Shown in pieces: positions 596 to 45,793 of a stretch of DNA of 64,000 bases. Where the stretch lies: assembly GCA_045593405.1 (NCBI GenBank), contig JAZNWN010000015.1:91542-155541 (forward strand). Reading direction: 5' to 3'. Positions within the stretch are counted from its first letter, which is position 1. Every line of letters begins with the position of its first letter. The stretch is from Clostridia bacterium. GTDB lineage: Bacteria > Bacillota > Clostridia > TANB77 > CAG-508. The notes under the pieces were generated by a model that saw only the letters and a program-made list of their open reading frames with translations, did no database searches and was not told the DNA's origin. The translations under genes and the position numbers were made by a program.

Positions 596-665
596 TGTAG
601 GGACGATTTTAATCGCCCGTTTTTCGAAGCATAGTCGAACAAGTTCGCCCCTACAAATTGCGCCA
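596..665. repeat. REPIN doublet TGTAGGGACGATTTTAATCGCCCG-TTTTTCGAAGCATAGT-CGAACAAGTTCGCCCCTACAAATTGCGCC
   Basis: Two inverted REPs with the CTTCGAAG-type spacer, between the SBP and permease genes. Confidence 0.7.
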
Positions 666-6032: not shown

Positions 6033-6110
6033 ATAGGGGTGCATGACTCAGAGCGCCCCTAAATTAATTTAGATTTAATTTCTGTGGCACCAGATCATGC
6101 GCCCTTACAT
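6033..6110. repeat. Two REP-like GC-rich hairpins (TAGGGG...CCCCTA family)
   Basis: ATAGGGGTGCATGACTCAGAGCGCCCCTAAATT and GTGGCACCAGATCATGCGCCCTTACA, between convergent genes. Confidence 0.6.
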
Positions 6111-25058: not shown

Positions 25059-25137
25059 TGTAGGGGTCGCACTCCTGGGCGACCCGTAGATATTTCAAAT
25101 ATTTATTTTCGGGGCGCCGAAGACTGCGCCCCCTACT
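25059..25137. repeat. Two REP elements (TGTAGGGGTCGCACTCCTGGGCGACCCGTAGA; CGGGGCGCCGAAGACTGCGCCCCCTAC)
   Basis: GC-rich palindromes with TGTAGGGG/CCCCTAC termini, between spoVG and murC. Confidence 0.6.
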
Positions 25138-25230: not shown

Positions 25231-26619
25231 ATGATTAACTTAGATAATATTGAAAATTTAAAAAAATATAAACATATACATTTAATTGGAATTGGTGGAG
25301 TTAGTATGAGTGGAATTGCAGAATTTTTGCACCATTTCGGTTTGTTTGTAACTGGTTCTGATTGTACTAAAACTAAACTTACAGATAGATTATCAAGTCA
25401 TGGTATTTTTGTGTCTATTGGCCATTCTACTGCACTAGTAGAAAAAGCTGATTTAGTTATTTATTCTGCTGCCATTAAACCAGATGATCCAGAATATGTT
25501 TGTGCAAAAGAAAAAAACATAGTAATGATAGAAAGAGCTGATTTTGTCGGATTTTTAACTCGTATATATCAAGATACTATTGGTGTTTCTGGAACTCATG
25601 GAAAAACAACCACTACTTCTATGATTTCTTTATGTTTTATTGAAGCTGGACTTGATCCTAATGTTCAAGTAGGCGCACATTTAAAACAAATTAATGGAAA
25701 TTACAGAGTTGGTAATAGTGATTATTTTATATTAGAAGCTTGTGAATATGTTGAAAGTTTTTTAAAATTCAATCCTAAATCTGCTGTTGTATTAAATATA
25801 GATAATGATCATTTAGATTATTTTAAAACTTTCGATAATATAAAAAATGCTTTTAGCAAATATGTTTCATTACTTCCAAGAGATGGTTTGTTAGTTACAA
25901 ATGGAGATGATGAAAATTGTCTTGATTTAAGAAAAAAAACATATGCTAAAACTGTTACTTTTGGTATAAATAATGACAAAGCAAATTTTGTTGCAAGAAA
26001 TATATCTTTTGATATAAACGGATTCGCAAAATTTGATGTTTATTATAATAATAATTTCTATTGTGAAATTAAATTATCTGTTCCTGGTATGCATAATGTT
26101 TACAACAGTTTAGCTTGTATTTCAATTTGTGTAAATTACGGAATTGATAAATATACCATAAAAACTGCTTTAAAAAAATTTACTGGAGCAAACCGTAGAT
26201 TCGAACTAGTTGGTTCATATAACAATATTTATGTTTATGATGATTACGCTCATCATCCAAGTGAAATACTTGCTACTTCAAAAGCGCTTAATCAAAAAAC
26301 ATTTAGACAATCTTGGGTGGTTTTTCAGCCTCATACTTATAGTAGAACAAAAGAATTACTTGATGACTTTGCTAAGTCTTTATTAGATTTTAATAATATT
26401 ATTATTACTGATATATATGCTGCAAGAGAGCACAATATATACGATATATCTTCTCAGGATTTAGTAGATAAAATAAATTCTTTAGGTAAAAAAGCTATTT
26501 ATATCAAAGAGTTTGATGATATTGCCCAATATATAAAAGAACGTGCTTGCCCAAACGATATTATTTTAACAATGGGAGCTGGCACAGTAGTAGATGTATC
26601 TAAGAAAATATTATTATAA
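25231..26619 (+). CDS. murC: UDP-N-acetylmuramate--L-alanine ligase
   Basis: HLIGIGGVSMSGIAEFL, GTHGKTTTTSMIS and DDYAHHPSEI Mur ligase motifs; 462 aa. Confidence 0.9.
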   Translation: MINLDNIENLKKYKHIHLIGIGGVSMSGIAEFLHHFGLFVTGSDCTKTKLTDRLSSHGIFVSIGHSTALVEKADLVIYSAAIKPDDPEYVCAKEKNIVMIERADFVGFLTRIYQDTIGVSGTHGKTTTTSMISLCFIEAGLDPNVQVGAHLKQINGNYRVGNSDYFILEACEYVESFLKFNPKSAVVLNIDNDHLDYFKTFDNIKNAFSKYVSLLPRDGLLVTNGDDENCLDLRKKTYAKTVTFGINNDKANFVARNISFDINGFAKFDVYYNNNFYCEIKLSVPGMHNVYNSLACISICVNYGIDKYTIKTALKKFTGANRRFELVGSYNNIYVYDDYAHHPSEILATSKALNQKTFRQSWVVFQPHTYSRTKELLDDFAKSLLDFNNIIITDIYAAREHNIYDISSQDLVDKINSLGKKAIYIKEFDDIAQYIKERACPNDIILTMGAGTVVDVSKKILL

Positions 26620-26620
26620 A

Positions 26621-26695
26621 AGAGTGTCAATAGGGACGGGTCTCTTTGGCAGTAATGTTACTGTCAAAGGGAACCGTCCCCATTGACACTCTTTT
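26621..26695. terminator. Very long near-perfect palindrome (~33-bp stem); bidirectional terminator between murC and sortase
   Basis: AAGAGTGTCAATAGGGACGGGTCTCTTTGGCAGTAA-TG-TTACTGTCAAAGGGAACCGTCCCCATTGACACTCTT followed by a T-run. Two mismatches in the stem. Confidence 0.5.
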
Positions 26696-26696
26696 T

Positions 26697-27380
26697 TTAT
26701 TCTCTTGCTTTTACCACTATTCTTGCATTACTATCATCTGTGCAAGTTACTAGTGTTATTTCTGTATTATCTCCAACATTTCTAGTTATATATGCTACGT
26801 CTTCAGGTGTTGTTTCATATTTCTCATAAATTGTGTATGTTAATGTTTTTCCAGTTTCATCTGTTATTTTTATTATATCACCTGTTGCTACATTCTCTAA
26901 ATTTGAAAAGAATTGTCCATTTCTATAGTTATGTCCTGCAATTACTACATTTCCAGGTTGATTAATCTTAGGATTTTCTGGATATCTAACTGCAACAGAT
27001 TGTTCTAAGCTCGCAACTGTTTCTTTTTCCAAAATAGGATATTTTATATTTATTTTTGGTATCTCTATATATCCTATCATTACATAATTATTATAGTAAG
27101 TCACTTTTCTTGTTCCTTCATCTCCAGTATTTGTGCCTACATTATTATTTGTAACAACATTTTGTTCTACTAATCCTTCTCCTGAAGTATTTGTATTAGT
27201 ATTATTAGTAGTAGTATCATTTATATTATCTTCAAATCTATCTATTGCATTTTGTGCATCTTTATCATTTTTATATCTTTTATATGCACTTACACCAAGT
27301 ACAGAAATCAGTACCACTACAAAAATTATTGCTATAATTAAAATAATTGTTAAAAAATTATTATATTTGGCTTTAAACAT
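26697..27380 (-). CDS. Sortase family transpeptidase
   Basis: N-terminal TM anchor, Thr/Asn-rich linker, and the catalytic region ...VIAGHNYRNGQFF...TLVTCTDD... (TLxTC active site). Confidence 0.75.
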   Translation of the reverse strand: MFKAKYNNFLTIILIIAIIFVVVLISVLGVSAYKRYKNDKDAQNAIDRFEDNINDTTTNNTNTNTSGEGLVEQNVVTNNNVGTNTGDEGTRKVTYYNNYVMIGYIEIPKINIKYPILEKETVASLEQSVAVRYPENPKINQPGNVVIAGHNYRNGQFFSNLENVATGDIIKITDETGKTLTYTIYEKYETTPEDVAYITRNVGDNTEITLVTCTDDSNARIVVKARE

Positions 27381-27820: not shown

Positions 27821-27847
27821 GAACGGGCGATTAAAATCGCCCCTACT
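27821..27847. repeat. REP element CGGGCGATTAAAATCGCCCCTAC immediately after the alaS stop
   Basis: Identical core to the REPs flanking the RAYT gene. Confidence 0.65.
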
Positions 27848-27860
27848 TAATCTTTATCAA

Positions 27861-29630
27861 TTATTGTAATATTGCTTTTATACGTCTTACTCCTGCTGAT
27901 GATGATTCTTCTTTTTTGATTTTAAATGTTCCTAGTTCTGATGTATTAGTTACGTGAGGTCCTCCACAAAGTTCTATTGAAACATCTCCAATTTTATATA
28001 CTGTAACTACATCACCATATTTTTCAATGAACATCGCTTCTGCACCCATTCCAATAGCTTCTTCTTTTTTCATTTCTAATCTTTCTACTGGAATTGCCAT
28101 TTTTATGTATTCATTTACTAATTCTTCGGCTTTTTGTTTTTGTTCATCTGTCATTTTTGCATCATGTGAAAAGTCAAATCTCATTCTTTCTGCTGTGATA
28201 TTGCTTCCCTTTTGGTGTACGTGAGAACCTAAAACTTGTTTTAATGCAGCATTTAAAAGGTGTGTTGCTGTATGGTATTTTGTTTCCATTTCACCTGTTG
28301 AAGCAAGACCCCCTTTAAATTTTTCAGTTGCTCCTGCTCTAGATTTTGCTTGATGCTCTGCAAATTTTTCCGCAAACCCTTTTGTATCAACTTCTAGGTT
28401 TCTTTCTCTTGCAAGCTCTTCTGTTAATTCTATTGGGAAACCATAAGTATCATATAATTTAAATGCGTTATCTCTATCTATTAAGTTTCCTTCTAAATGA
28501 GATACTATTTTTTCAAATTCTCTTAAACCTTTTTCAAGTGTTCTATTAAATTTAATCTTTTCATTCTCTAATACTTCTAGAATTATATTTCTATTACGTT
28601 CTAATTCAGCATAAAATGGTGCATATTGGTCAATTATTAAGTTTGCTAAATCTTTTTCCCAAGCGCTGTTTATATCTATTTCTAAGTTTTTAGCATATCT
28701 TATAATTCTTCTAATTAATCTTCTTAAAATATAACCTTGGTCTGTGTTTGAAGGTTTAATTCCTGCATCATCACCACTAATTACTACAACAGCTCTCATA
28801 TGGTCTGCAATTATTCTCATTGCTTTTACATATTTTTCATCATCATATGATTTGCCAGAAATTTCCTCTATTTTTGCTATAACATCTTTCCATACAGATG
28901 ATTTATAATTATCTGTTTGTCCTTCTAATATAGCAGTTACTCTTTCTACTCCTAATCCAGTATCAACATTTTTATTAGCAAGTGGTTTAAATGTACCATC
29001 TGTTTCATGATTATATTGCATGAATACGTTATTCCAAATTTCTACCCAATTTTCATCTTCTGGGTCAAATATTTCTGGAACAGGCTCATCACTTCTCCAA
29101 TAGAAGATTTCTGTATCTGGTCCACATGGTCCTGTAAGTTCCATATTTGGCCACCAGTTATTTTCCTCTTCTAAATATGCTATTCTATTTTTGTTTACTC
29201 CTAAAGACTCCCAGATTTCAGCAGATTCATGGTCAGCTGGTACTATATCATTCCCTCTAAAAACTGTAACAGCTAATCTTTCTACTGGAATGTTTAGTCT
29301 TTCAGTTAATAACTCAAAACTCCAAGTGATTGATTCTTTTTTAAAATAATCTCCAAGTGACCAATTTCCAAGCATTTCAAAAAATGTATGATGTGTTTTA
29401 TCTCCTATTGAATCTAAGTCATTTGTTCTAAAACATTTTTGAACATCTGCAAGCCTTGTTCCCTCTGGATGAGATGCTCCTTTTAAATATGGCACTAATG
29501 GTTGCATACCAGCTGTATTAAACAAACATGTTGGGTCGTTTTCTGGTATAATTGGCGCACTAGGTATAATTTTGTGTCCTTTTTCTTCAAAAAATTTTAA
29601 GTATGTGTTTTTTAAATCTATTTTTTGCAT
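27861..29630 (-). CDS. alaS: Alanine--tRNA ligase, short form (catalytic, tRNA-recognition and editing domains; no C-Ala domain)
   Basis: Class II catalytic motifs (FNTAGMQPL, FFEMLGNWSLGDYFK...), editing HTATHLL...CGGPHV; ends 589 aa with a clean TAA followed by a REP. Confidence 0.8.
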   Translation of the reverse strand: MQKIDLKNTYLKFFEEKGHKIIPSAPIIPENDPTCLFNTAGMQPLVPYLKGASHPEGTRLADVQKCFRTNDLDSIGDKTHHTFFEMLGNWSLGDYFKKESITWSFELLTERLNIPVERLAVTVFRGNDIVPADHESAEIWESLGVNKNRIAYLEEENNWWPNMELTGPCGPDTEIFYWRSDEPVPEIFDPEDENWVEIWNNVFMQYNHETDGTFKPLANKNVDTGLGVERVTAILEGQTDNYKSSVWKDVIAKIEEISGKSYDDEKYVKAMRIIADHMRAVVVISGDDAGIKPSNTDQGYILRRLIRRIIRYAKNLEIDINSAWEKDLANLIIDQYAPFYAELERNRNIILEVLENEKIKFNRTLEKGLREFEKIVSHLEGNLIDRDNAFKLYDTYGFPIELTEELARERNLEVDTKGFAEKFAEHQAKSRAGATEKFKGGLASTGEMETKYHTATHLLNAALKQVLGSHVHQKGSNITAERMRFDFSHDAKMTDEQKQKAEELVNEYIKMAIPVERLEMKKEEAIGMGAEAMFIEKYGDVVTVYKIGDVSIELCGGPHVTNTSELGTFKIKKEESSSAGVRRIKAILQ

Positions 29631-29754: not shown

Positions 29755-29779
29755 TGTAGGGGCGATTTTAATCGCCCGT
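29755..29779. repeat. REP element TGTAGGGGCGATTTTAATCGCCCG abutting the RAYT stop codon
   Basis: 3' flank of the RAYT gene. Confidence 0.7.
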
Positions 29780-30232
29780 CTAAAAATATTTATCCATTTT
29801 CCAATTTATTACATTGTTCTTTATATACTCTTTTACTTTTAAATATTCTTTCTCATTTCTGACAATATGTTCATAAAAAGATTTTTGCCATATAGAATAT
29901 CCAATTCCTCTACTAATATTTGCTTTGAAATGCTTAATTATTTTTGAAATTGTTATTCCATTTTTATAATTTATCAATAGTAGAATATGTAAATGATTTG
30001 GCATTACAACATATTCATCTATTATTATATTTTTGTATATTTCTTCTAATTGATATATATTTTGTTTTACAATATCTCCTTCTCTTGTTAAATTTATATG
30101 ATTTTCTTTCTCTATTTTTCCTAGTAGTTCTAATCTATCTTTTACACATATTGTAATAAAATACATGTTTTCTTGTGAATAATCATAATCCTTTAACCTT
30201 ATCTTTTTTCTTACGGGCAAATTTTCTTTCAT
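29780..30232 (-). CDS. REP-associated tyrosine transposase (RAYT; IS200/IS605 TnpA-like HuH fold)
   Basis: 150 aa with the HuH motif (VVMPNHLHILL) and the C-terminal catalytic-Tyr region (WQKSFYEHIV). Flanked on both sides by inverted REP copies. Confidence 0.7.
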   Translation of the reverse strand: MKENLPVRKKIRLKDYDYSQENMYFITICVKDRLELLGKIEKENHINLTREGDIVKQNIYQLEEIYKNIIIDEYVVMPNHLHILLLINYKNGITISKIIKHFKANISRGIGYSIWQKSFYEHIVRNEKEYLKVKEYIKNNVINWKMDKYF

Positions 30233-30245
30233 TTATCTCCTTTCT

Positions 30246-30325
30246 GCCCCTATACATTTTACTCTATTTTATATATTTTTACAATATTTATATTCAAATT
30301 GCAGGCGATTAAAATCGCCCCTACA
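30246..30325. repeat. REP half-site (GCCCCTATACA) plus REP GCAGGCGATTAAAATCGCCCCTACA on the 5' flank of the RAYT gene
   Basis: Inverted relative to the 29755 REP. Confidence 0.65.
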
Positions 30326-30487
30326 TTTACTCTACAATCTTTAGTTATATAACAAACAGTACACATATCTTTTTTCTCTTCAGATATTTGAAGTCGCGAT
30401 TTGCGACTTCAAAGTTTCATGTCCTTTAATGATTAATTTAAAATTTATTTTTAAGGTGAATTTTTTTCACCTTAAATTCTATATAAA

Positions 30488-30521
30488 GAAATCCGCCCTC
30501 GATATAATCGAAGGCGGATTT
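30488..30521 (-). terminator. Terminator hairpin AAATCCGCCTTCGATTATATCGAGGGCGGATTT (minus strand) after gene 30529-31233
   Basis: 13-bp GC-containing stem followed by T-rich sequence on the minus strand. Confidence 0.5.
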
Positions 30522-30528
30522 GGCAATT

Positions 30529-31233
30529 TTAGTCATAGTAATATGCATCTCTATCATGTTTTCTTGGAATAAGCCTTTCTGTTGATCTTAACCTTTCCTC
30601 ATAAACATAGCGTACTTCATTCATTTCTTTCTGTCTTTGCACATCTTTTCCTAAAGCTTTGTCCAAGAGTTCCCAGACAGGTTCCAAAAGAGTTCGAATT
30701 CCTTCCTCTTCTTTTTTCAAAGCCTCTATTGCCTGTTCTAAAGGCTCTGCTTTTTCAAAGAAAGCTTCAACTTCTACTCTTGCTTTGTCCAACACACCTA
30801 CTTTTTCAGGAGGCCATTTATCTTCTTGGAACCCAAGCCATTTGTCAAAACTTTCTCTTTTGCACAAATCTAATCTAGGTTCCCAAAGTACATCAACCTG
30901 GCCTTGTACTCTCCTAAGGCAATATGCGCATCTATATCCATGCATACTTAAATAGCTAATGTGCATATCAAATTGAGTTAATGTACCAGGTTTCCGTTTA
31001 GGCCGTACTACATATGGTCTTGCATCAAGTTTATTATATTTTGCAAGTGCATCCTTTTCTTTCTCTGTTAAACTATGTCCTGTTTCTCGACATTCCTGTT
31101 GGAAATTTTCCCAAAAATCAAGATGGGCTTTTCTTAGATTTTCCAGTTCTGCTTGCTTTTCAGCAATTTGAGCTTGAATACTTTGAAATTTTATTACAAG
31201 CTCTTTAATAGCTTCTATTGCCAAATAAATCAC
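30529..31233 (-). CDS. Hypothetical protein, foreign-looking (higher G+C), with N-terminal coiled coil
   Basis: 234-aa ORF with G+C clearly above the flanks by eye. Contains two in-frame CGG codons (VVRPKRKPG). No family recognised. Confidence 0.45.
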   Translation of the reverse strand: MIYLAIEAIKELVIKFQSIQAQIAEKQAELENLRKAHLDFWENFQQECRETGHSLTEKEKDALAKYNKLDARPYVVRPKRKPGTLTQFDMHISYLSMHGYRCAYCLRRVQGQVDVLWEPRLDLCKRESFDKWLGFQEDKWPPEKVGVLDKARVEVEAFFEKAEPLEQAIEALKKEEEGIRTLLEPVWELLDKALGKDVQRQKEMNEVRYVYEERLRSTERLIPRKHDRDAYYYD

Positions 31234-32684: not shown

Positions 32685-32776
32685 TGTAGGGGCGATTTTA
32701 ATCGCCCGCTCTTCGAAGGCTTACTTTTTGTTTAGCAAAGCTATGTAAGAACGGGCGAACAGAGTTCGCCCCTACA
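32685..32776. repeat. REPIN-like doublet (TGTAGGGGCGATTTTAATCGCCCG ... CGGGCGAACAGAGTTCGCCCCTACA) with a CTTCGAAG-containing spacer
   Basis: Two inverted REPs; same spacer motif as the doublets at 596 and 33427. Confidence 0.7.
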
Positions 32777-33426: not shown

Positions 33427-33495
33427 TGTAGGGGCGAACTTGTTCGCCCGCACTTCGAAGAACGGGCGATTAAAATCGCCCCTACAAATTTCGCC
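33427..33495. repeat. REPIN doublet TGTAGGGGCGAACTTGTTCGCCCG-CACTTCGAAGAA-CGGGCGATTAAAATCGCCCCTACAAATTTCGCC
   Basis: Two inverted REP hairpins, between convergent engB and clpC. Confidence 0.75.
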
Positions 33496-33527
33496 ATGAA
33501 TATTTCACAAAAATTCAATTTATCTTA

Positions 33528-36047: not shown

Positions 36048-36134
36048 TGTAGGGGTCGCACCCCTGGGCGACCCGAAATGAATATTATAAATAATTTACG
36101 GGTCGCTGTGGGCAGCGACCCCTACAAATTTTGC
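36048..36134. repeat. Two REP elements (TGTAGGGGTCGCACCCCTGGGCGACCCGAAATG ; TACGGGTCGCTGTGGGCAGCGACCCCTACAAATTTTGC)
   Basis: GGGTCGC...GCGACCC subtype, left flank of the high-GC islet. Confidence 0.65.
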
Positions 36135-36151
36135 AATATATTATAGCAAAA

Positions 36152-36198
36152 AGAAAACCCTCGCTTTATAAAGCGAGGGTTTTTCTTTTTTAATGACT
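36152..36198. terminator. Terminator hairpin AAAACCCTCGCTTTATAAAGCGAGGGTTTTTCTTTTTT
   Basis: Perfect 12-bp stem plus T-run. Confidence 0.6.
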
Positions 36199-40371: not shown

Positions 40372-40452
40372 AAGGATTCCTTTGAACTTAAATGATTTTG
40401 AATAATTATGAATTAGATAATGATTTGTTTAAAATAATCTTATAAAATATTT

Positions 40453-40480
40453 GTAGGGGCGATTTTAATCGCCCCTACAT
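40453..40480. repeat. Singlet REP TGTAGGGGCGATTTTAATCGCCCCTACA
   Basis: Perfect hairpin with both family termini. Confidence 0.75.
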
Positions 40481-43901: not shown

Positions 43902-43929
43902 TGTAAGGGCGTATGATTACACCCCTATA
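43902..43929. repeat. Degenerate REP TGTAAGGGCGTATGATTACACCCCTATA
   Basis: Family termini with a decayed stem. Confidence 0.45.
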
Positions 43930-45746: not shown

Positions 45747-45793
45747 TGTAGGGGCAAACTCTGTTCACCCATGCTTCGAAAATCACCCCTATA
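45747..45793. repeat. Decayed REPIN remnant TGTAGGGGCAAACTCTGTTCACCC-ATGCTTCGAAAA-TCACCCCTATA
   Basis: Retains termini and the CTTCGAA spacer but its stems are mutated. Confidence 0.45.

Follow-up and report, generated by a model that had tools for sequence, protein, structure and literature searches.

The 64-kb window analysed here, a stretch of Clostridia bacterium contig JAZNWN010000015.1, carries what we read, with a probability of about 0.82, as a minimal 'REPtron'. At its centre lies a gene for a REP-associated tyrosine transposase (RAYT, or TnpAREP), a single-strand-DNA nuclease of the HUH class that takes its name from repetitive extragenic palindromes (REPs). Two cognate REPs flank the gene with their heads pointing outward, and further copies of this hairpin, along with variants of its stem, are scattered between genes as singletons, as dimers resembling REPINs (REP doublets forming hairpins) and bacterial interspersed mosaic elements (BIMEs), and as double-foot palindromes. 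Homology, the catalytic and GTAG-contact residues, the predicted fold, the flank architecture, dispersal, stem covariation, joint variation of REPs and RAYT, and purifying selection all support this assignment. A first-pass annotation had already named the gene a RAYT, an identity borne out by family models, the match to a solved structure, the fold, the flanks of relatives and the dispersal of the repeat. REP counts and RAYT copy number below cover the window, and homologous loci in other genomes carry L numbers.

The RAYT gene is a single open reading frame (ORF) on the minus strand, 29780-30232, with its ATG start at 30230-30232 and its stop codon at 29780-29782, and it encodes a 150-aa HUH/Y1 nuclease. 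The ORF and its HUH motif NHLHILL (aa 79-85) lie where the first-pass annotation had placed them. A tblastn search returned no further RAYT copies or pseudogenes within the window, leaving a single copy, and the GC content of the gene is 21%, compared with ~31% in neighbouring housekeeping genes. Comparison with RAYT and IS200-like profile models, which the annotation had suggested, favours the RAYT family: NCBIfam REP_Tyr_transpos is by far the best-scoring family (63.5 bits, E=1.9e-17), Pfam Y1_Tnp (PF01797) passes its cutoff (28.5 bits, cutoff 23) and the NCBIfam IS200 model does not (17.1 bits, cutoff 55). The sole significant match in a phmmer search of Protein Data Bank (PDB) sequences is E. 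coli TnpAREP (4ER8, E=1.6e-5). The same structure comes first when an AlphaFold (AF2) model of the protein (mean pLDDT 77.8) is compared with the PDB by Foldseek (4ER8_A, TM 0.65, rmsd 3.8 A), ahead of the IS200, IS608 and ISDra2 transposases (TM ~0.5, rmsd 6-11 A), and all of the top 30 matches are Y1 transposases. As modelled, the fold is closest to that of monomeric TnpAREP. The ratio of nonsynonymous to synonymous substitution rates (dN/dS) is 0.24 between the window gene and L004 and 0.23 between L001 and L002, indicating purifying selection on the protein.

In an alignment of 24 sequences including E. coli RayT, H80-L81-H82 aligns with E. coli H59-M60-H61 and the HUH motif is invariant. 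Y136 (in KEYIKNN) falls in an equally invariant column, aligns with E. coli Y115 and sits in a predicted helix (127-143), while N140, the counterpart of E. coli N119, is the predicted third metal ligand. The active site of E. coli TnpAREP comprises H59/M60/H61, Y115, N119, H123 and E161 (Messing et al. 2012, PMC3479197). The HUH and tyrosine residues, on which the first-pass annotation had staked the assignment, are thus present as H80, H82 and Y136. The tyrosine it had nominated, within WQKSFYEHIV (aa 115-124), is a different one and was rejected as the nucleophile: Y120 aligns with Trp99 of the E. coli segment WQPRFWEHAI and is replaced by His in three homologs, whereas Y136 is invariant and matches Y115.

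On the alignment, WQKSFYEHIV is instead a GTAG-recognition motif. In E. coli the GTAG guide is contacted by W94, Q95, E100, H101 and R104 (Quentin et al. 2018, PMC6006769). Each of them is kept here, as W115, Q116, E121, H122 and R125, in the segment WQKSFYEHIVRN that matches the GTAG-reading residues of the E. coli enzyme. Their conservation links the protein directly with the GTAG heads of the repeats. Catalytic and GTAG-contact residues alike are invariant across 28 close homologs. A conserved Thr near the N-terminus is a further RAYT feature (Nunvar 2010); T27 (in YFITIC) occupies a column that is Thr in 24/24 aligned sequences, E. coli included, and is invariant among the 28 close homologs. 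The protein and its relatives also carry a conserved N-terminal segment, RKxIRLxxYDYS.

The two REPs bracketing the gene are both head-out, with their GTAG heads facing away from it. As the first-pass annotation had described, one copy abuts the stop codon and an inverted copy lies upstream of the start: TGTAGGGGCGATTTTAATCGCCCG, an inverted REP (iREP) in gene orientation, is separated from the stop codon by 1 nt, and GCAGGCGATTAAAATCGCCCCTACA at 30301-30325 lies 68 nt 5' of the ATG. Folded as single-stranded DNA (ssDNA), the downstream copy reaches -7.7 kcal/mol (z=-3.6) and the upstream copy a weaker -5.9 kcal/mol (z=-2.3). Just 5' of the ATG is a leader with a ribosome-binding (Shine-Dalgarno) motif, GGGGCAGAAAGGA, which is kept in L001-L004, L008, L009, L012, L014 and L016. 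The annotation had counted CCCCTATACA at 30245-30254 as an extra REP half-site, a claim that does not stand. The stretch is the reverse complement of the start of GGGGCAGAAAGGA plus 3 nt and belongs to this conserved leader; only GGGGCA..AAAGGA is conserved, at a fixed distance from the ATG, and relatives lack the TGTA part. A possible promoter, TTGTAA-17-TAAAAT, lies directly upstream of the leader motif.

Some similarity reaches beyond the REP heads. The two flanks of the RAYT gene share ~20 nt of inverted similarity outside the heads, with a second GTAGAG motif. Three REP dimers (641-695, 33472-33526 and 60475-60529) have in common an extra sequence, CCCCTACAAATTnCGCCrT…, outside one head, which suggests that the mobile unit may extend ~15 nt beyond GTAG.

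The scattering of the same REP through the window, another claim of the first-pass annotation, is readily confirmed. With at most one mismatch, the 22-mer TGTAGGGGCGATTTTAATCGCC occurs at seven sites (596, 27826, 29755, 30304, 32685, 33465 and 40452), compared with none in 100 dinucleotide-preserving shuffles. A wider descriptor calls for a GTAGGGG head (<=1 mismatch) and a GC-rich stem of >=6 bp; 21 distinct elements fit it, compared with 0.14 on average (maximum 2) in 100 Markov-1 controls. For the exact heptamer GTAGGGG the count is 23, and for nine control heptamers with altered heads it is 0-4. All elements of the family are intergenic, though ~84% of the window is coding, and the repeats thus fit the class-2 RAYT pattern of a flanking REP with 5' GT[AG]G that recurs between host genes. 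They share the frame TGTAGGGGC–stem–loop–stem'–GCCCG, within which stem interiors and loops vary. Pairing of the stem was examined without being imposed, using the pattern GTAGGGGCG-N3-loop-N3-CGCCC[GC] on the window and 80 genome loci. The N3 triplets are perfectly complementary in 31 of the 36 unique variants, across ~10 triplet types, and this strong compensatory covariation supports the hairpin.

The elements take three forms: singletons, head-out dimers and 'double-foot' single hairpins (Table 1). All seven singletons have their head on the minus strand, in sense orientation, 9-54 nt past a stop codon. Three of the dimers (596-655, 32685-32776 and 33427-33486) consist of one hairpin with the cognate 'ATT' stem and one of 'AAC' type, the latter being GTAGGGGCGAAC…GTTCGCCCG. 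A palindromic linker, CTTCGAAG, often joins the halves of dimers. As ssDNA, dimers are capable of forming long hairpins that resemble REPINs (-21 to -25 kcal/mol, z -6 to -7).

Table 1. The RAYT locus and the dispersed REP family, in window coordinates.
Feature	Coordinates	Strand	Basis or remark
RAYT (TnpAREP-like HUH/Y1 nuclease) coding sequence	29780..30232	-	family models, alignment, fold, dN/dS
Downstream cognate REP TGTAGGGGCGATTTTAATCGCCCG (iREP in gene orientation)	29755..29779 (sequence at 29755-29778)	+	22-mer family member
Upstream cognate REP, inverted copy GCAGGCGATTAAAATCGCCCCTACA	30301..30325	-	sequence, 22-mer family, relatives' layout
Leader and ribosome-binding (Shine-Dalgarno) motif GGGGCAGAAAGGA	30238..30250	-	just 5' of ATG; conserved in relatives
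Head-out REP dimer (REPIN/BIME-like): ATT-type REP, TTCGAAG linker, partly decayed AAC-type iREP	596..655	.	
Singleton REP-family hairpin, 9 nt past stop codon	3110..3135	-	
Degenerate double-foot hairpin (6033-6062) and decayed REP (6086-6109), between convergent genes	6033..6109	.	
Singleton REP-family hairpin, 54 nt past stop codon	8168..8190	-	
Singleton REP-family hairpin, 21 nt past stop codon	20609..20634	-	
Head-out REP dimer, differing stem types	25060..25136	.	
Singleton cognate-type REP AGTAGGGGCGATTTTAATCGCCCG, 15 nt past stop codon of alanyl-tRNA synthetase (AlaRS)-like gene	27823..27846	-	
Head-out dimer, cognate ATT-type and AAC-type, CTTCGAAG linker, after serS	32685..32776	.	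ssDNA fold -24.7 kcal/mol, z=-6.1
Head-out dimer, AAC-type and cognate ATT-type, CTTCGAAG linker	33427..33486	.	fold -21.4 kcal/mol, z=-7.1
Head-out REP dimer, GGGGTCGC-type stems	36048..36125	.	
Singleton REP-family hairpin, 41 nt past stop codon	36879..36906	-	
Singleton REP-family hairpin, 13 nt past stop codon	37691..37714	-	
Double-foot cognate REP TGTAGGGGCGATTTTAATCGCCCCTACA: one hairpin, GTAG on one side, CTAC on the other	40452..40479	.	
Degenerate double-foot REP	43902..43929	.	
Decayed REP dimer, CTTCGAA linker retained	45747..45793	.	
Head-out REP dimer, GGGGCAGGG / GGGGCGGAG stem types	60413..60489	.	
Double-foot REP TGTAGGGGCGCAAGCATGCGCCCCTACA, between convergent genes	61921..61948	.	
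Singleton REP-family hairpin, 22 nt past stop codon	62745..62770	-	

Gut Clostridia are rich in homologs of the RAYT protein, with 2629 protein clusters at E<=0.001, and some have already been named RayT by JGI. The closest genomes are all uncultured Clostridia/Clostridiales metagenome-assembled genomes (MAGs) from gut or rumen, at <=78% identity. A common layout, in which a REP is followed by promoter and leader, gene and iREP, unites L001-L016 (58-78% identity; >15 species), and in most of these close relatives the iREP begins 0-3 nt past the stop codon. Where the RAYT protein diverges, stem or loop is altered jointly on both flanks, as in L012 (ATTAATAAT), L014 (ACCAGTGGT) and L030 (GGATATCATCC); in these comparisons the hairpin stems co-vary with the protein by compensatory substitutions. 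Half-linkers of CTTCGAAG lie between the REPs and the gene in L004, L010, L012 and L016, and in those four loci the REPtron looks like a REPIN with a gene inserted in its linker. REPs also occur in frame inside the RAYT ORF in L019, L024, L027-L032, L040 and L047-L050, though none does so in the window gene. In L019 (3136-3158 and 3301-3323), GTAGGGGCGGATATTATCCGCCCG encodes VGADIIRP and its inverted copy encodes GRMISAPT. A different arrangement is seen in L005 (2762-2967), where five cognate REPs stand in tandem and in the same orientation, with a 46-nt period, directly 5' of the RAYT gene.

The cognate REP also occurs well away from RAYT genes. The exact 24-mer is present in at least 120 metagenome stretches, many of them on contigs labelled human gut. 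No RAYT is encoded at any of the 80 such loci that were fetched (478 kb, median GC 0.29); the cognate REP has thus spread far from its gene. REP density is 0.33 per kb in the window and 0.07 per kb in the 80 metagenome loci (seeded copy excluded); E. coli K-12 has ~600 REPs, or ~0.13 per kb (PMC8266576). The hairpin consensus GTAGGGGCG…CGCCCG is present in relatives of 25% to 58% genome GC, which suggests that the composition of the repeat follows the recognition needs of the nuclease rather than the base composition of the host.

Several observations weigh against the REPtron assignment. The NCBIfam RAYT equivalog NF047646 has a cutoff of 80 bits, which the protein, at 63.5 bits, does not reach; the match spans model positions 6-131 of 146, and the score is sub-threshold because the C-terminal part of the model has no counterpart in the protein. 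The class-2 signature Y---NP, or NP(L/V)(R/K)xG following the Tyr, is replaced by Y136-IKN-N140-V141. Y---NV/I stands in place of Y---NP, with the Asn kept, in every relative with >=57% identity, and Y---NP is retained in more distant relatives (L018, L019, L025 and others). As judged from the alignments, the Pro to Val/Ile change is a departure of one residue, and the series of homologs is otherwise unbroken. The protein has 14 residues past the Tyr and lacks an E. coli-type C-terminal tail. In the E. coli enzyme, tail residues G160 and E161 contact the last two GTAG bases, and deletion of the tail cripples the enzyme (PMC8266576). Judged from its sequence, the tail-less window protein cannot recognise GTAG in a manner identical to that of the E. 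coli enzyme. On the side of the repeats, the inner arm of the upstream flanking REP is mutated (CGCCtGc), several window REPs are decayed, and the cognate stem is found in only ~1/3 of window REPs; those with non-cognate stems may belong to other RAYTs beyond the window, or to lost ones.

Among other explanations, the one that survives best, although we consider it unlikely, is that the REP-RAYT-REP unit is an autonomous insertion sequence (IS) of the IS200/IS605 type, with the scattered hairpins being solo ends or derivatives like miniature inverted-repeat transposable elements (MITEs) rather than products of a domesticated single-copy nuclease. In its favour, two RAYT units in one MAG, L004 and L007 (2850-3500 in each), are ~97% identical over a stretch that starts ~55 nt outside the left REP and ends shortly after the right REP, with unrelated sequence on either side. 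The inverted-repeat similarity that reaches ~20 nt past the REP heads in the window points the same way, as does the neighbourhood of the gene, which is unconserved in most close relatives. Neighbours are shared only with L010 (serS), L015 (clpC) and L036 (AlaRS-like, HIT), and conserved synteny was accordingly set aside as evidence of domestication, being mostly absent. Against an autonomous IS stand the single copy in the window, the low score of the IS200 equivalog (17 bits, cutoff 55), two ends that repeat a single hairpin in inverted orientation (IS200/IS605 elements have different subterminal hairpins at left and right), the RAYT-specific residues (the N-terminal Thr and the WQ..EH..R motif), a fold nearest to monomeric TnpAREP, and hairpins that far outnumber genes (0/80 REP-bearing loci with a RAYT). 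This explanation also overlaps the REPtron assignment, since the L004/L007 duplication and the unconserved neighbourhoods suggest, from sequence, that whole REPtrons do occasionally move or duplicate.

Two of these loci show further peculiarities. In L007 the outer ~55 nt is repeated inverted on the right side, giving ~75-nt terminal inverted repeats. In L036 (Oscillospiraceae) the RAYT homolog lies between an AlaRS-like gene and a HIT gene, an arrangement that hints at an old shared insertion neighbourhood.

Less probable still is a view of the RAYT as a relic that no longer functions and of the REPs as immobile fossils kept only for host functions such as mRNA 3'-end hairpins. The loss of Pro from the otherwise universal Y---NP motif, the damaged upstream flank and the decay of several REP copies are compatible with this, and the position of 7/7 singletons in sense orientation 9-54 nt past stop codons suggests selection at the RNA level. 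However, the ORF is intact and preceded by a Shine-Dalgarno sequence, dN/dS of ~0.24 denotes purifying selection, and the catalytic and GTAG-contact residues are invariant in the 28 close homologs. The five exact 22-mer copies in 64 kb, along with the recent REP-RAYT-REP duplication in one relative, also speak against immobility. It is scarcely credible that the hairpins represent intrinsic terminators of the ordinary sort, or some other RNA element, with a transposase gene beside them by coincidence: they are GC-rich stem-loops after genes, and a scan for terminator-like structures caught two of them (40452-40479 and 29760-29777), but most lack a T-tail, the T-tailed terminators nearby (30489-30521 and 36153-36184) differ in sequence, the invariant unpaired 5' TGTAG head is foreign to terminators, the hairpin brackets RAYT in >15 species and co-varies with the gene, and no known RNA family in Rfam matches anywhere in the window at gathering score.

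If the REPtron assignment is correct, homology with E. coli TnpAREP suggests how the system may work. A REP would fold when its DNA becomes single-stranded, on the lagging-strand template or in transcription bubbles, and the RAYT protein would recognise the foot of the hairpin, with W115, Q116, E121, H122 and R125 reading the unpaired 5' GTAG. With a divalent metal held by H80, H82 and N140, Y136 would attack the DNA to form a 5'-phosphotyrosine intermediate, and strand transfer would then excise, duplicate or re-insert REP or REPIN units. The REPs would accordingly be non-autonomous elements dependent on one RAYT gene. Cleavage and strand-transfer activity, current mobility and any role at the RNA level are what we infer from this analysis.

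E. coli REPs have been shown to affect mRNA stability or translation. Many of the window REPs lie 9-54 nt past stop codons in the sense strand and are likely transcribed as hairpins in 3' untranslated regions (3' UTRs), where they could affect mRNA stability or translation. The plus strand of the window has a strongly negative GC skew and most genes are on the minus strand. Singletons consistently occupy the strand that is both coding and G-rich, which would fit action of the protein on the lagging-strand template and, equally, selection for sense-strand 3' UTR hairpins; with coding and G-rich strands being one and the same in the window, the two causes of the strand bias are inseparable.

Systems of this kind are known, and annotation pipelines already call homologs of the protein 'RayT'. 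New are the host lineage, the Y motif without Pro, the minimal 150-aa architecture, the heterotypic TTCGAA-linked dimers and the contrast in GC between repeat and host. A textbook REPtron in a 28% GC genome of spore-forming gut Clostridia falls in a host group where REP/RAYT systems are barely described. It offers a natural experiment in RAYT/REP co-evolution, with ~10 compensatory stem types, and a minimal, tail-less RAYT of 150 aa in which to ask how the GTAG guide is read. The GC-rich palindromes likely cause assembly breaks and mis-annotated 'transposases' in gut metagenome bins, and the REPs may affect the mRNA stability of the housekeeping genes upstream of them. A broader proposal can be advanced only tentatively and is, in our view, possible but doubtful. 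Gut spore-forming Clostridia may harbour an active, compact RAYT branch of subclass 2.4 that keeps GTAG-tagged REPs despite having neither the C-terminal GTAG-clamping tail nor the Pro of Y---NP, builds heterotypic REPINs (ATT-type and AAC-type, joined by a TTCGAA palindrome) and fills 3' UTRs at ~2.5x the density seen in E. coli. If that held, REPs would add to the genome structure and post-transcriptional control of an AT-rich Gram-positive lineage a substantial layer that has gone unrecognised, and GTAG recognition would depart from the E. coli paradigm, perhaps relying on the N-terminal RKxIRLxxYDYS segment.

The host is a low-GC spore-forming Firmicute, as is evident from the window GC of 28.4%, the encoded sporulation domains (Spo0A_C, YabG, YunB and SipL) and the closest genomes, which are Clostridia MAGs; the first-pass annotation had proposed the same, at ~28% GC. 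Next to the RAYT gene, a 234-aa ORF (30529-31233, minus strand; GC 36%) has no Pfam domain and no homolog beside RAYT in any relative locus, and it was treated as unrelated to the system. Three terminator-like hairpins (30387-30413, 30450-30476 and 30489-30521) lie between this ORF and the RAYT gene. On the other side of RAYT, the AlaRS-like protein (27861-29630, minus strand) has just 589 aa, with the class II core and a second additional domain. Between convergent Mur-ligase-like and sortase genes, a 43-nt inverted repeat (26613-26700; 86% complementary, 2-nt spacer) has no relation to the REP family and probably serves as a terminator in both directions. Farther away, mfd, which encodes the transcription-repair coupling factor, is split into two minus-strand ORFs in different frames (15240-18657), with 16981-18657 covering model positions 1-382 and 15240-16961 covering positions 395-907; this could reflect a frameshift, a pseudogene or an assembly error. 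A Spo0A-like ORF (18776-19309, minus strand) has just 177 aa, with Spo0A_C at residues 77-176, and seems either to be missing a full N-terminal receiver domain or to be truncated or mis-started.

To our knowledge, REP/RAYT biology has been worked out almost wholly in Proteobacteria, mainly in E. coli, Pseudomonas and Stenotrophomonas. The first-pass annotation had called a dense, GC-rich REPIN population with its RAYT unusual in a ~28% GC spore-former, which holds in part. REP populations in Firmicutes or Clostridia are undescribed in the searchable literature (Nunvar 2010, Ton-Hoang 2012, Di Nocera 2013, Bertels 2017, Quentin 2018, Corneloup 2021), and Bertels 2017 names Clostridia in one sentence, for a different group, Group 1 (PMC5581495). 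The case is less exceptional in other respects, as homologs are abundant in gut Clostridia and the system fits an already described subclass, 2.4.

Known systems resemble the window REPtron to different degrees. The IS200/IS605 transposases TnpA of IS608 and ISDra2 share the HUH/Y1 fold and chemistry, and they too recognise a hairpin with a 5' guide tetranucleotide. The window system differs from them in its sub-threshold IS200 score, its ends formed by inverted copies of one hairpin, the lack of a tnpB partner, a single gene copy alongside many hairpins, and its RAYT-specific motifs. Closer parallels are found in the super-family of GTAG-tagged REPs (Di Nocera et al. 2013, PMC3733652), whose members carry a terminal GTAG that is unpaired, have stems of 6-13 bp, form sub-families that differ by complementary stem changes, occur predominantly as GTAG-outside (HH) dimers, and lie mostly after genes, between unidirectional or convergent ORFs. 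That catalogue spans >80 species in 8 phyla, and Firmicutes and Clostridia are unmentioned in its text (PMC3733652). Two features set the present case apart, the CTTCGAAG linker and the extreme contrast between a GC-rich hairpin and a 28% GC genome.

E. coli K-12 RayT/TnpAREP (YafM, PDB 4ER8; subclass 2.2, Group 2) is the best match in sequence and fold. Shared features are the HUH motif, the catalytic Tyr, the Asn ligand and five GTAG-contact residues, a gene between inverted REPs with 5' GTAG, and intergenic REPs that often form inverted dimers of two stem types (Y and Z in E. coli). Identity is only ~23%, however, and the ~30-residue C-terminal tail that provides the H123 and E161 ligands and the G160/E161 GTAG contacts is absent here. 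The hairpins of the window are short, perfect stems of 7-10 bp without the bulge that E. coli TnpAREP requires, single REPs flank the gene where E. coli has BIME arrays, and the window is denser in REPs (0.33 vs ~0.13 per kb).

The nearest description is that of subclass 2.4 of Quentin et al. 2018 (PMC6006769), which corresponds to RAYT Group 4 of Bertels et al. 2017 (PMC5581495). Members of this subclass have NH[IFV]H, WQ and YIxNNP motifs, no C-terminal extension and three G-C pairs at the base of the REP stem; 'double-foot' REPs are listed for it, and intragenic in-frame REPs are its unique feature (PMC6006769). The window protein resembles them in its NHuH, WQ and YIxNN motifs, a short conserved N-terminal motif and the absence of a C-terminal extension, and its repeats do so in their 5' GTAG, the GGG/CCC stem base and the double-foot forms at 40452-40479 and 61921-61948. 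In-frame REPs inside the gene are seen in distant relatives such as L019 rather than in the window RAYT. There are also differences, two of them in single residues: the Y motif reads YIKNNV, with Val or Ile in place of Pro throughout the close clade; the middle HUH residue is Leu (NHLH) as opposed to the published [IFV]; the protein has 150 aa against a median of 194 aa, because the window RAYT lacks intragenic REP insertions; and the host belongs to low-GC Clostridia, whereas 'Cyanobacteria, Bacteroidetes and various phyla' are reported. By its motifs and REP type, rather than by a tree, the window RAYT is best placed as a compact member of subclass 2.4, or Group 4.

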